DNA of 64,000 nucleotides from an uncultured Clostridia bacterium (GCA_949538735.1 CATGLK010000002.1:46145-110144), one strand, 5' to 3'; positions 46,124 to 50,115 are shown, counted from the stretch's first letter. Made by a program: numbers and translations. Notes: a model not told the origin generated them from the letters alone.

Positions 46124-46750
46124 ATGATAGACAAAATCTGTACCTTTTTAACCAACAGAATTAGAAAAGAAATGCCTGAAGTAGATGATGAAAAAGCAGA
46201 AGTGATATTTTATGGACTACAAAACATAGTAGGAGAAATTCCCAAAATATTTATAATGCTTGCAATTGCTTATTTATTAGGAATTTTTAAATGGTCATTA
46301 TTCACTTTTTTAGCACTGTTCCCATACAAAGGAGCATCAGGTGGAGTACATTTAAAAACACATATTGGCTGCATTACTTTTACAACAATATTTTATTGCA
46401 TAATACCATTCATATCTCAGCATTTTATAATGCCAAGTGTAATTAAATATGTGGTGATTTTTGCAGTATGGATATTTGGAATGATAATGATAAAATTATA
46501 TGCACCAGCAGATACAGAAAATGTACCAATTTTAAATTTAAAGGTTAGAAAGAAAAAACAAATCTTTTCTTATATCACATTTACAATTGGATTATTAGTA
46601 GCAGCAGTTATAAAAAATAGTACAATTGCAAATATATTGATATTAGCAAATTTATTCCAAACAATAACAATTACAAGATTTATTTATAAAGCAACTAATA
46701 ATAAATATGGATTCGAAGTATATGATAATACTTCTTTAGAGACAGTTTAA
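46124..46750 (+). CDS. agrB: accessory gene regulator B (AgrD-processing membrane peptidase)
   Basis: Multi-TM protein with KGASGGVHLKTHIGC, matching the AgrB catalytic His/Cys region. Confidence 0.8.
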   Translation: MIDKICTFLTNRIRKEMPEVDDEKAEVIFYGLQNIVGEIPKIFIMLAIAYLLGIFKWSLFTFLALFPYKGASGGVHLKTHIGCITFTTIFYCIIPFISQHFIMPSVIKYVVIFAVWIFGMIMIKLYAPADTENVPILNLKVRKKKQIFSYITFTIGLLVAAVIKNSTIANILILANLFQTITITRFIYKATNNKYGFEVYDNTSLETV

Positions 46751-46809
46751 TTTAAAATATATACCGGTTATATTTTATAATATATAATTTAACTAAGGAG
46801 GAATTTATT

Positions 46810-46923
46810 ATGTTCAAATTTCTAGCAAAAATAGCTGAGAAGTATGCAAAAGTAACAAATACAGCTTGTTTTGTTATAACAATATTTCATCAACCTAAAA
46901 TGCCAAAAAGTATGATAAAATAA
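46810..46923 (+). CDS. agrD: AgrD-like autoinducing peptide precursor (37 aa)
   Basis: MFKFLAKIAEKYAKVTNTACFVITIFHQPKMPKSMIK: amphipathic leader, central Cys-containing segment, charged tail. RBS AAGGAGG. Confidence 0.55.
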   Translation: MFKFLAKIAEKYAKVTNTACFVITIFHQPKMPKSMIK

Positions 46924-46926
46924 ATA

Positions 46927-46967
46927 AAAGAAAGAGAAATTAGTATAAAACTTCTCTTTCTATTTTT
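46927..46967. terminator. bidirectional terminator between convergent agrD and agrC
   Basis: AAAGAAAGAGAA..TTCTCTTTCT hairpin followed by ATTTTTTT. Confidence 0.7.
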
Positions 46968-48317
46968 TTACTTATAATAAATTTCTAATTGTTGTTTAAA
47001 GAATTTATCATCTTTAATAGTACGTAAAACAACATTTGAATTTTTATTAACAATTTTGCGAACCTTCCATAAACCTAATCCAGTATGATTTTCTTTGCCA
47101 GAAATACCTTTTTCAAAAATCTTTTCTGTATCAACTGTTTTATCAGCATATGTATTTTCTACTATTATTAATTGTGTATGATTTTTACGATCATCTCTAA
47201 AAATTAAATTTACAACTTTTTCTTCACATTCAGAGCTTGCTTCAATAGCATTATCTAATAAAATTCCTAATATTCTTGCAAATTCATAAATTTTCATATT
47301 TAAAGTACTTAAATCTAATAAAAATGTGATATTTACTTTTATATCTTTAGAATCGGCTTCATGATATTTCTTTGTTAACAAATTATAAATTCCATCATTA
47401 TTTACTACTTCTGGATTTAAAATGTATAAATTATTAACTCTTTCAGAATCATCTACTAATTCAGTATAATATTTTTCTAAACCTTCCATATCATTAGTTT
47501 TAATATATCCACCAATTGTTGTAACCATATTATCAAAGTCATGTTTAAATGCTCTAACACTATCATGTAATACACGTAATGAATGATTATATTCTTCAGC
47601 ACTTTGTAACTTTCTAGTTGTTAAAATTAATTTGAATATCCTTGTTAAACTATAAATGTTTATAGCAAAGTATAAAACTAAACATATTGCATTTGAAAAA
47701 GTAATTATAATTGGCAATTTATCAACATAATAAAATAAAGTAATACATTGAAGTATTATTGTAAGGAGTCCTAAAATTAAATTAGAAAATATAATAAATT
47801 TAGACTTTTTATCCATATTTTCTAAAAAATTTAATCTAAAATTTCTATGTTTAATAATAAATATTAAAGATAGTACAAATAAATATATTATTAAAATATA
47901 TAAAATTCTATAAGCTGGTACAGTTGATAAAATTTTAGTGTCAATATTTAATAAAGTTATATAAGGATTAAGTATAATAAAATTAATTATATTAAATCCA
48001 ATTGCAGAAGTTAATATAGAAGCCGTACTTTTTAGGAAAGACATTTTAAATATTATATATGCTAAACCAATCATCATTCCAAAATTAAAAAATACATTAA
48101 AAGGATTAGGTATAATATACATACTTAATAAACTCACTATAGTCATCAAAATAACATATAAAAGTTTTTGTTTTCTAGAAGATGTAATGTCCAAAATAGA
48201 CACAAATAATAGCATTATTAATATATTTTCTATTACAGCACAAGGTATAGCAATAATATTAATCAATGTTTCATTCGGCGTACTTACAGCCAACCATAAA
48301 TTATTCAAAATTTCCAT
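46968..48317 (-). CDS. agrC: AgrC-like (HPK10-family) sensor histidine kinase
   Basis: About 6 N-terminal TM helices; C-terminal HATPase with ENHTGLGLWKVRKIV (G2 box). RBS GGAGGTGA. Confidence 0.75.
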   Translation of the reverse strand: MEILNNLWLAVSTPNETLINIIAIPCAVIENILIMLLFVSILDITSSRKQKLLYVILMTIVSLLSMYIIPNPFNVFFNFGMMIGLAYIIFKMSFLKSTASILTSAIGFNIINFIILNPYITLLNIDTKILSTVPAYRILYILIIYLFVLSLIFIIKHRNFRLNFLENMDKKSKFIIFSNLILGLLTIILQCITLFYYVDKLPIIITFSNAICLVLYFAINIYSLTRIFKLILTTRKLQSAEEYNHSLRVLHDSVRAFKHDFDNMVTTIGGYIKTNDMEGLEKYYTELVDDSERVNNLYILNPEVVNNDGIYNLLTKKYHEADSKDIKVNITFLLDLSTLNMKIYEFARILGILLDNAIEASSECEEKVVNLIFRDDRKNHTQLIIVENTYADKTVDTEKIFEKGISGKENHTGLGLWKVRKIVNKNSNVVLRTIKDDKFFKQQLEIYYK

Positions 48318-49014
48318 AATTTTTAATCACCTCCAATAAATCAGACTTATATTTAGGACCAATATCACAAAAACTATCATCCTTAAAAGTAACAGTTCCA
48401 GAAACTGGTTCAATATCTTTAATTTGCAAAACATTAGCAACACAAGACTTATGACATCTTATATAAAAATCAGGAAGTCTATCCTGAAACTTAGCAAAAG
48501 AGCTATAAATATCATAATCACGAGAAGCAGTATGAAAAACAAGTTTCATACCATCCCTCTTAACATATTGCACTTCATTTGCATCAACAACAGTATTCTT
48601 ATTATCAAGCTTAATATATCTTTTAGGAGTCCCATTAACATCCTCAAAAAGTCGACAAATAGTTTCAGCCAACCTATCATAAGTAATAGGCTTAGCCAAA
48701 TAATCAAAAGTCTTAAACTTATAAGCAAGCAAAGCATACTCCAAATGACCAGTAGTAAAGATGATATAAGAATCCTTATTTATTTTTCTAATCGCCCTTG
48801 CTAATTCTAAGCCAGTCTTATCAGAATTCAAATTTATATCCAATATAATAACATCAGCTTTATTAGCAGTAACAAATTTAAGCATATCAGTTGAATTTGT
48901 AGTCTTATAAGAAACACAAGCCTCAAAATTATTTTTTGCAAAGATATCTTCTAACATTTTTTCTAATTTATTCAAAAGATTTAAGTTATCATCACATAAA
49001 GCAAAATTCAACAT
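48301..49014 (-). CDS. agrA: LytTR-family response regulator (AgrA-like), paralog 1
   Basis: Receiver domain (CDDN, IILDINL) plus LytTR DNA-binding domain. Overlaps the agrC start by 17 nt. RBS GGGGTGA. Confidence 0.8.
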   Translation of the reverse strand: MLNFALCDDNLNLLNKLEKMLEDIFAKNNFEACVSYKTTNSTDMLKFVTANKADVIILDINLNSDKTGLELARAIRKINKDSYIIFTTGHLEYALLAYKFKTFDYLAKPITYDRLAETICRLFEDVNGTPKRYIKLDNKNTVVDANEVQYVKRDGMKLVFHTASRDYDIYSSFAKFQDRLPDFYIRCHKSCVANVLQIKDIEPVSGTVTFKDDSFCDIGPKYKSDLLEVIKNYGNFE

Positions 49015-49398
49015 ATAATTTTCACCCCTTTAAAATACTATAAAAAAACAGGAAGTAAGATAATTCGACAAAAATAAAAAAATTACCTTATTTTTCCAGT
49101 CAATACAATAATATAATCCAAAATCTGCATATTGTCAATACTTATTTACAAAATTATCCAATTCTTAAAACGAACAGTATTACTGAGGTTTGAGAACTGA
49201 CACTATAAATATTAGCAATAGAGATAACATAAAATTGTAAGAACTCCATTATACATCATAATTTACATAAAATCAAGTAAAACGTAAAATATTTATAAAA
49301 ATTGTTAAGAGTGAAACGTGAAAAATATTTATAAAAATGTGTTGTAAATAAAAAAATAATGACAAATAAAATATTTATCATTATTTATATCATTAAAA

Positions 49399-50115
49399 TT
49401 AAATTAATACTTGTGATGTTTTAGAAAGAGCGCCTAACAAATCAGATTTATATTTTGGTCCAATATCACAAGAGCTACCATCTTTAAAAGTAATAGTACC
49501 AGATACTGGTTCAACATCTACAATTTGTGAAATATTAGCAATACAAGATTTATGACATCTTTTATAAGAATCAGGTAGTCTATCTTGAAACTTGTTAAAA
49601 GAGCTATAAATTTCATAATCACGACCAGCAGTATGGAAAACAAGTTTCATACCATCTCTTTTTATAAAATGCACTTCTGAAGCATCAACAAGAGTATTTT
49701 TGTTATCAAGTTTTATATATCTTTTAGGAGTTCCATTAATATCTTCAAAAAGTCTTAATATAGTTTCTTCTAGTCTATCATATGTAATTGGTTTTGCTAA
49801 ATAGTCGAATGTTTTAAATTTATAAGCGACCATAGCATATTCTAAATGAGCAGTAGTAAATATTATATAAGCATCCTTATTTATTTTCCTAATTGCCTCT
49901 GCTAGTTCTAATCCTGTTTTATTACATTTTAAATTGATGTCTAACATTATTACATCAACCTTATTGTTGCTAACATAGTCAAGCATATCTGTTGTGTCTG
50001 AACACCTGTAAGATACATTAGCTTCAAAATTGTTTTTGATAAAGATGTTGTCTAACATTTTTTCTAATCTGTCTAAAATATTTAAGTTGTCATCACATAT
50101 AGCGAATTTTAGCAT
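49399..50115 (-). CDS. LytTR-family response regulator (AgrA-like), paralog 2
   Basis: About 75% identical to paralog 1. Start set at MLKFAICDD, which has RBS GGGGAG. Upstream promoter regions of the two paralogs are also similar. Confidence 0.8.
   Translation of the reverse strand: MLKFAICDDNLNILDRLEKMLDNIFIKNNFEANVSYRCSDTTDMLDYVSNNKVDVIMLDINLKCNKTGLELAEAIRKINKDAYIIFTTAHLEYAMVAYKFKTFDYLAKPITYDRLEETILRLFEDINGTPKRYIKLDNKNTLVDASEVHFIKRDGMKLVFHTAGRDYEIYSSFNKFQDRLPDSYKRCHKSCIANISQIVDVEPVSGTITFKDGSSCDIGPKYKSDLLGALSKTSQVLI

Follow-up and report, generated by a model that had tools for sequence, protein, structure and literature searches.

How is a peptide quorum-sensing circuit wired when the genes that make the signal and the genes that sense it face each other on opposite strands, and when the response regulator is present in two copies? 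This question is raised by an agr-type locus in a 64-kb stretch of genomic DNA (GCA_949538735.1, CATGLK010000002.1:46145-110144; termed the window) from an uncultured, low-GC gut Clostridia species. The locus comprises agrB and agrD on the plus strand, which encode the processing membrane protein and the precursor of an autoinducing peptide (AIP), and, on the minus strand, the sensor kinase gene agrC, the response regulator gene agrA (RR1) and a gene for a second, AgrA-like regulator (RR2). Our analysis indicates that this is probably a complete agr-type AIP quorum-sensing module consisting of two convergent units, with autoinduced agrBD and with RR2 as a second AgrC-dependent output. Taken as a whole, the system is of an ordinary kind, to which this lineage has added a few twists of its own. 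Its distinguishing features, as verified by sequence comparison, are the convergent agrBD/agrA-agrC architecture, a longer spacing between the cysteine and the follower of AgrD, and an AgrA paralogue that selection has retained.

Related loci in uncultured Clostridia

A scan of species-representative genomes yielded 80 related loci, all of them in metagenome-assembled genomes (MAGs) of uncultured 'Clostridia bacterium' or 'Clostridium sp.', including Clostridium sp. CAG:343 and CAG:440. An identical locus with the same neighbours is present in MAG GCA_948838885.1 and in several metagenome assemblies. The relatives of AgrB number thousands, the closest ones being almost all metagenomic. The scans for repeat pairs described below covered the 64 kb of the window and 826 kb of flanks of related loci. 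The window and its four closest species, denoted L007–L010, make up the five-species subclade.

Two facing units encode the agr protein families

All five open reading frames (ORFs) were recovered at the positions given in an initial annotation of this DNA (Table 1). Its assignment of the locus to the agr type is borne out by every feature that can be assessed from sequence, including membership of the AgrB, AgrD, AgrC and AgrA families and the presence of a hypervariable segment. In AgrB, residues H76 and C83 are invariant across the alignment and lie inside the motif GGVHLKTHIGC, with a spacing that we take to be that of the catalytic H77 and C84 of Staphylococcus aureus AgrB. AgrC combines a polytopic sensor (about residues 1–228, with about 6–7 hydrophobic segments) with an H-box (KHDFDN, containing His259) and a GHKL ATPase domain; in NCBIfam it is matched best by AgrC, at 1.2e-35 and under the equivalog cutoff of 500 bits. 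The 3' end of agrA overlaps the start of agrC by 17 nt, an overlap that is kept in the species with a single regulator copy.

The ORF coordinates confirm the initial observation that agrBD faces agrC-agrA, and the related loci show the same arrangement: with the window proteins as tblastn queries, agrB-agrD was found to face agrC-agrA wherever the DNA of a relative spans both units, and the two units have separate promoters in all related loci covering both. Being kept clade-wide, the convergent layout thus represents the ancestral condition and did not come about by rearrangement in the window's own lineage. Nothing specific was found in the literature on a convergent agrBD/agrA-agrC layout or on a duplicated agrA, which is weak evidence given the incomplete literature coverage. 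Between the stop codons of agrD and agrC lies a candidate for the shared bidirectional terminator that had been proposed initially, a hairpin of 13 bp flanked by T-runs on either strand. In both orientations it is more stable than shuffled sequence, at −10.5 kcal/mol (z −2.4) on the plus strand and at −17.0 kcal/mol (z −4.1) on the minus strand. Rfam gave no match in the region 45600–50600, where no RNAIII-like divergent effector RNA was found either.

Among the five closest species, identity amounts to 55% in the sensor half of AgrC and 96% in its kinase half, and to 87% in the C-terminal half of AgrB and 98% in its N-terminal half. On this comparison, the C-terminal half of AgrB, the core of AgrD and the sensor of AgrC represent the classic agr hypervariable segment. 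Since both convergent units share in this segment, they can be argued to form one cognate signal-receptor system.

The AgrD precursor and its predicted peptide

The agrD gene begins 60 nt 3' of agrB and has its own ribosome-binding site. Its product is made up of a leader (residues 1–19), the ring-forming Cys20, a variable core (residues 21–26) and the follower HQPKMPKSMIK (residues 27–37). This ORF did not arise by chance, as it is kept in every related locus with covering DNA (about 80 species) and displays a conserved/hypervariable/conserved pattern, in line with its initial designation as agrD-like. In the related loci the leader is nearly invariant (M[LF]KFLAK.AEKYAK.TNT[AS]) and the follower reads HQPKMP.SMIK(KD) with HQPKMP invariant; between them we counted 76 distinct variable stretches in 79 species, with entropies of 2.5–2.7 bits at positions Cys+1 to +4, 1.9 at +5 (V/I) and 1.2 at +6 (mostly F). 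The HQP motif starts seven residues past the cysteine in 75 of the 79 species and six past it in the other four. The residue missing from these four shorter precursors belongs to the variable part beside the cysteine, and the W-V-L ahead of HQP is retained.

Exhaustive searching with phmmer from AgrD did not lead beyond its own family, in which serine replaces cysteine at the same position in some relatives and the spacing from Cys/Ser to the follower extends from 5 to about 7 residues. The top match, P0121, proved spurious, being an E/T/P/V-rich repeat protein of 4,382 aa. The wider AgrD family was not alignable computationally, and the cleavage register was taken from the literature. In 78 of the 79 species the net charge of the follower falls between +1 and +3, and the window copy has +3; the basic tail that had stood out in the initial annotation is therefore a family-wide trait and not peculiar to the window copy. 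The AgrD follower belongs to the clostridial [H/Y][Q/E]PK.P type.

In C. thermocellum, the AIP ends at F29 and the follower starts at Y30, with the conserved proline at P35 (PMC5322536). Applying this register, in which the follower starts five residues ahead of the conserved proline (P32 in the window), places the predicted cleavage between F26 and H27. By this analogy, the predicted AIP ring comprises C20–F26, CFVITIF, that is seven residues rather than the canonical five of CFVIT. The initial annotation had put the candidate AIP around TACFVIT; its placement of the cysteine agrees with our data, but the published register predicts the ring CFVITIF rather than CFVIT with a TA tail. The predicted CFVITIF peptide probably has no tail, and such a tail-less ring would be prone to an S-to-N shift yielding a homodetic cyclopeptide. 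Both properties have precedents, as clostridial AIPs are often tail-less and rearrange to homodetic cyclopeptides (PMC8251862, PMC10301443). Six-residue rings have been described for C. acetobutylicum and R. cellulolyticum and a nine-residue ring for E. faecalis (PMC8251862, PMC4916163).

A candidate LytTR site in the agrBD promoter

Upstream of agrB, the footprint TTTTyrTAAAanAAAA is conserved as a direct repeat in 79 species, followed 22 nt further on by an extended −10 element, TGnTAnAAT, without a good −35. Of 80 aligned promoters, 79 have this element at an unchanging distance from the repeats. Both the phasing of the repeats (21 nt) and their distance to the −10 element hold in 79 species while the surrounding sequence diverges. 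We built a weight matrix of the repeats from the other species, leaving the window out, and scored pairs with a threshold of at least 18. Within the window a single pair exceeded this value (46030–46066, 27.3), with 0.3 expected by chance and a runner-up at 14.3, and just three other pairs were obtained across the 826 kb of related loci. LytTR-type direct repeats, which the initial annotation had proposed to seek upstream of both regulators and of the pilin-like genes, are present upstream of agrB, and none was found in the window upstream of RR1, RR2 or a pilin-like gene next to the locus.

The closest verified counterpart is the site of RgaR, which activates agrB1D1 through two direct repeats 21 nt apart with critical G residues at −51 and −72 (PMC10602386). 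Judged by its motifs, the agrBD promoter shows the classic LytTR-activated geometry, like this RgaR site, and we infer that the regulator binding the agrB repeats is AgrA.

A lineage-specific duplicate of AgrA is retained by selection

RR1 and RR2 are 77% identical over 230 aa, close to the approximately 75% initially estimated, with similar identity in both domains (76–83%). The duplicated DNA extends over about 48335–49168 and 49436–50267 at an offset of 1099–1101 nt and takes in the TTGACA-17-TATATT promoter together with the leader, in agreement with the similar promoter regions noticed on both regulators. The likely true start of RR2 is at position 50115 (MLKFAICDD, 238 aa), a length also assigned by gene callers on identical contigs; the longest RR2 ORF reaches 50202, running into RR2's own promoter. 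Among the related loci, two regulators occur only in the window and in L007–L010. When 79 regulators were placed in a neighbour-joining tree, the proximal copies came out as the sister clade of the distal ones, which indicates a single duplication at the base of the five-species subclade. The second regulator is thus a true paralogue, as had been supposed, and its gain from another lineage was rejected on the same topology. From these comparisons, RR2 arose by a duplication of roughly 0.85 kb covering agrA with its promoter and leader.

Both regulator ORFs are intact in all five species, and the ratios of nonsynonymous to synonymous substitution rates (dN/dS) are 0.03–0.08 for RR2 and 0.10–0.28 for RR1. 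By this measure, purifying selection acts on both copies and is stronger on the distal one. In the same genomes, dS itself amounts to 0.18–0.55 for RR1, 0.37–0.97 for RR2 and 0.55–0.78 for agrC. The lower dS of RR1 hints at recombination or gene conversion at agrA, or at synonymous sites that are subject to different regimes of mutation or selection.

RR1 retains the ancestral overlap with agrC, and RR2 has acquired a new C-terminal tail. The 14 paralogue-diagnostic substitutions are located mainly in the LytTR domain (eight), with three in the tail, two in the receiver domain and one in the linker. The residues D8, D9, D59, T87 and K108 are intact in RR1 and RR2. RR1 could be aligned to the LytTR domain of S. 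aureus AgrA (3BS1), where H169 and N201 are the residues that Sidote et al. in 2008 reportedly described as contacting the bases; their counterparts, M156 and K189, are the same in both paralogues.

RR2 is located within about 0.4–2.2 kb of agrA in every species carrying it. In L008 and L009 the gap between the two regulators is filled by 1.7–2.2 kb of unrelated genes, which argues that RR1 and RR2 are separate transcription units. The inserted DNA of L008 holds a 351-aa ORF with a GEKRGE-type repeat (9508–10563, plus strand), possibly Rpn/transposase-like, and that of L009 three small ORFs without an assigned role (9175–10971, plus strand); the RR1–RR2 junction is a variable spot. No second AgrC-like kinase was found in the 64-kb window or adjoining RR2 in the related loci. 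By analogy with known two-regulator systems, the most likely role of RR2 is that of a second AgrC-dependent output acting on similar DNA sites with a different outcome or different kinetics.

Promoters, leaders and spacer of the regulator genes

The agrA promoter, TTGACA-17-TATATT, matches 11 of 12 consensus positions and is a near-consensus sigma-A promoter. Together with the leader it forms a block that is conserved in about 75 species, far above the surrounding intergenic DNA, and that consists of TGGATAATTTTGTAAAT, TTGACA-17-TATATT and then CTGGAAAAnTAAGGTAAT...TTGTC[AG]AA (window positions 49042–49160 and 50147–50259, minus strand). In the two copies of the window, the leader hairpin with its U-run resembles a terminator or a 5' stabiliser. 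We considered the agrA leader as a clade-wide structured RNA or attenuator and rejected this, as RNAalifold on 76 leaders returned no consensus structure and Rfam no match; the consensus is missing because several lineages keep the 5' block without the complementary 3' arm. A CodY box in the leader, with about 9 of 15 matches by eye, was likewise dropped. The conserved leader block may act as an operator for a protein or as a sequence motif of the RNA.

Separating RR2 from the agrA promoter is a spacer that has no counterpart upstream of RR2. It carries a promoter-like TTGATT-17-TATAAT (49276–49248) with an extended −10 (TGATGTATAAT), as well as a local direct repeat, TTTTTATAAATATTTT(T)(C)ACGTTT, whose copies are about 35 nt apart (49248–49345 region, minus strand). 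The promoter-like element is common to the window, L007, L008 and L010, and the element at 49248–49345 gave no match to the agrB repeat matrix. It may be left over from the ancestral intergenic DNA between agrA and pda, or it may be a second promoter for agrA.

Table 1. Features of the agr locus, with positions counted from the first nucleotide of the window.
Feature	Position	Strand	Description and evidence
Candidate LytTR (AgrA) binding site	46030-46045, 46051-46066	+	Two direct repeats, 21 nt start to start
agrBD extended -10	46088-46096	+	TGaTAAGAT; 22 nt 3' of repeat 2; no good -35
agrB	46124-46750	+	Polytopic membrane peptidase/cyclase; Pfam PF04647 at 5.4e-36
agrD	46810-46923	+	37-aa AIP precursor; TIGR04223 at 31.9 bits, cutoff 19
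Candidate bidirectional terminator hairpin	46929-46961	both	Terminator scan and fold energies
agrC	46968-48317	-	449-aa sensor histidine kinase; HATPase_c_5 at 2.4e-16
agrA (RR1)	48301-49014	-	237-aa REC+LytTR response regulator, ancestral position; Pfam Response_reg and LytTR
agrA promoter and leader	49015-49160	-	UP-like TGGATAATTTTGTAAAT 49160-49144; -35 TTGACA 49138-49133; -10 TATATT 49115-49110
agrA leader hairpin with U-run	about 49099-49042	-	Folds at -12.0 kcal/mol
Non-duplicated spacer between RR2 and agrA promoter	49161-49398	-	No counterpart upstream of RR2
RR2	49399-50115	-	238-aa REC+LytTR regulator, lineage-specific agrA paralogue; Pfam
RR2 promoter and leader, copy of agrA's	50116-50259	-	UP-like 50259-50243; -35 50237-50232; -10 50214-50209
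RR2 leader hairpin	about 50198-50147	-	Folds at -11.4 kcal/mol

Neighbouring genes

Directly upstream of agrB, a gene on the plus strand (44300–45661) encodes a 453-aa protein with a type IV pilin-like N-terminus (weak N_methyl match, KGITLIALVITIIVLLILAG). Weaker copies of its N-terminal part are found about 10 kb upstream at 32940–33210 and 34349–34547. This pilin-like gene, which has no LytTR-type repeats, is variable or absent beside agrB in other species.

On the other side of the locus, three small genes lie between RR2 and a polysaccharide deacetylase gene, encoding 74 aa (50270–50494, minus strand), 209 aa (50513–51142, minus strand) and 69 aa (51223–51432, plus strand). For the small neighbours, of 74, 209, 69 and 108 aa, Pfam, NCBIfam and PHROGs gave no informative match. 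The 74-aa and 209-aa genes are confined to RR2-bearing species, L009 excepted, and their arrival may roughly coincide with the duplication. The deacetylase gene and the sporulation genes yabP and yqfD follow at 51553–53896 on the plus strand, and in related loci the deacetylase gene is usually found beyond agrA. The proximity of yabP and yqfD indicates that the host is probably a spore-forming member of the Clostridia, and the three neighbours together suggest that the agr locus probably occupies a conserved chromosomal position rather than a mobile element.

Discussion

A working model of the circuit

The features described above can be joined into a mechanism in which the receptor pair AgrC/AgrA would be made at a basal level from a sigma-A promoter without repeats. 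AgrB, with H76 and C83, would strip the follower from AgrD and cyclise the core onto Cys20. The cyclic peptide would then be exported, with the leader being cut after the invariant TNTA, and would be bound by the hypervariable polytopic sensor of AgrC. AgrC would in turn phosphorylate AgrA, from His259 to D59, and phosphorylated AgrA would bind the repeats and turn on agrBD, closing a positive feedback loop. The likely logic, as far as the promoters reveal it, is thus that of a basally produced receptor combined with autoinduced signal synthesis.

Several observations weigh against this picture as a whole. The kinase and the regulators score far under the NCBIfam equivalog cutoffs for AgrC and AgrA, indicating that they are members of these families and not orthologues of the staphylococcal proteins. 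The hairpin between the two units has just three G-C pairs. The search for a kinase partner of RR2 covered 64 kb of the genome, and such a partner may be encoded outside this stretch. The drop of the AgrD entropy at Cys+5 and Cys+6 fits residues recognised by AgrB and a five-membered ring equally well. Furthermore, C. difficile agrB1D1 is activated by an unlinked LytTR regulator, and clostridial agr systems are argued to be often not autoregulatory (PMC10602386).

Alternative readings of the peptide, the feedback and the second regulator

These observations open up alternatives for each part of the model. For the signal, the AIP might be CFVIT, a five-membered thiolactone of the canonical kind that may carry an N-terminal tail such as (T)A, leaving I25–F26 in the cleaved follower. 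We regard this as the less probable outcome, albeit one to be taken seriously, as the variability of AgrD peaks at Cys+1 to +4 and falls at +5 and +6, as would be expected for a conserved AgrB recognition site. Known AIPs, however, end in hydrophobic residues, which the two hydrophobic residues ahead of HQP resemble, and this rather favours the inclusion of the latter in the ring. So does the deletion beside the cysteine in the four species that keep W-V-L, suggesting a register counted from the follower. Five-membered rings are found in most characterised AIPs (PMC4916163), but rings of six and nine residues exist as well, and the published clostridial register puts the start of the follower at H27 (PMC5322536). 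The seven-residue ring CFVITIF therefore remains our prediction. As to the feedback, the system might not be autoinducing at all, with the agrB repeats being bound by another LytTR regulator or acting as an AT-rich UP-like element and AgrA having its targets elsewhere in the genome. The motif is indeed AT-rich and lacks the G typical of VirR/RgaR boxes, and RgaR activates C. difficile agrB1D1 independently of that system's own peptide, clostridial agr loops being said to be often broken (PMC10602386). Nevertheless, we think this improbable for the locus at hand: an exact 21-nt phasing and a fixed distance to the −10 element have been preserved in 79 species amid diverging sequence, the repeat pair is unique in the window and nearly so in the scanned flanks, with its three other pairs, and AgrA and RR2 are the only LytTR regulators seen at the locus. 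Autoinduction of agrBD by AgrA remains the more likely reading.

For the second regulator, RR2 might stand outside the agr circuit as an orphan that is phosphorylated by a kinase encoded elsewhere or works without phosphorylation. It has its own promoter, unrelated genes split it from agrA-agrC in L008 and L009, its LytTR domain carries paralogue-diagnostic substitutions and its C-terminal tail is new; moreover, orphan AgrA-like regulators such as RgaR exist (PMC10602386). We give this reading little credence, however, considering that RR2 is the sister of AgrA by a recent duplication, has always stayed at about 0.4–2.2 kb from agrA, has retained the promoter and leader of agrA and shows just two paralogue-diagnostic changes in its receiver domain, and that neither the window nor the related loci offered a second AgrC-like kinase. 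Nor does RR2 look like a redundant or decaying duplicate without a distinct role, which we judge very unlikely: the duplication is recent and lineage-restricted, and promoter and leader are nearly identical to those of agrA, but all five species have an intact ORF whose dN/dS lies under that of agrA itself, and paralogue-specific substitutions have become fixed. A second AgrC-dependent output therefore continues to be the preferred role of RR2. Going one step further, the clade as a whole might use an enlarged AIP ring of seven residues (six in a few species), set by the Cys-to-follower spacing, and one AgrC might feed two AgrA paralogues that act on the same repeats with opposite or temporally distinct effects. 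We put this combined proposal forward tentatively, as a speculation that is rather doubtful in full.

Implications

While agr is well understood in pathogens, it has barely been studied in gut commensals. The clade described here comprises at least 80 species-level genomes, nearly each with its own peptide core, and thereby amounts to a catalogue of species-specific signals and receptors that is useful for studying or manipulating cross-talk in the gut. A seven-residue ring, if true, would extend the known AIP ring sizes of 5, 6 and 9 and support the view that ring size is set by the register of the follower. The recent and retained duplication of AgrA provides a clean natural case for the evolution of a one-kinase, two-regulator branch. 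Should the two regulators act in opposite or temporally distinct ways, this branch would turn positive feedback into a pulse or band-pass circuit, and the duplication is recent enough for each step to be traced. The basic picture of how agr operates is unchanged by this locus.

Comparison with known systems

With S. aureus agrBDCA, the locus shares the four protein families, the hypervariability of the AgrB C-terminal half, the AgrD core and the AgrC sensor, and paired LytTR repeats with 21-nt phasing in an autoinduced promoter, autoinduction being proposed here. It differs in having no single co-directional P2 operon and no divergent RNAIII, and its receptor operon is without repeats. The follower is of the basic HQPKMP type and not acidic, and the spacing from the cysteine to the follower is longer.

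A pair of related regulators beside one kinase is also known from the Lactobacillus plantarum plnABCD genes, where we take the pheromone to be a linear peptide that is not cyclised by AgrB and plnC and plnD to be co-transcribed with the kinase gene; RR2, in contrast, has its own promoter. As in our case, one AgrC-family kinase is combined with two homologous LytTR regulators, which are 59% identical there and 77% identical here (PMC2714321). PlnC and PlnD bind the same repeats, one as an activator and the other as a repressor (PMC2714321), a split that is shown for the Pln proteins and hypothesised for AgrA and RR2.

Among clostridial systems, C. difficile R20291 agr2 (agrACDB; PMC3754575) likewise belongs to a gut species, keeps the four genes together in one locus and has agrA ahead of agrC. 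Its genes, however, are all co-directional, and a single transcript has been proposed for them (PMC3754575), whereas two facing units with a terminator-like hairpin between them are present here. RgaS-RgaR is unlinked to agrBD and does not sense AgrD1 (PMC10602386), whereas the kinase and regulator of our locus adjoin agrBD, and the sensor of the kinase varies together with the peptide core.

C. acetobutylicum, according to Steiner et al. 2012 as described in PMC10301443, has agrBD and agrCA operons drawn as an agrBDCA cluster. On that account, the two species agree in having separate signal-production and signal-reception units, in lacking an RNAIII-like effector adjoining the locus, and in a tail-less ring larger than five residues, reported there and predicted here. 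By the same account, the C. acetobutylicum units are co-directional, with agrC preceding agrA, and the ring has six residues, whereas our units are convergent, agrA precedes agrC and seven residues are predicted; a lanM-like gene downstream is absent from our locus, which has an extra AgrA paralogue. The closest precedents for the locus are these agrBD and agrCA operons of C. acetobutylicum and the PlnC/PlnD pair.

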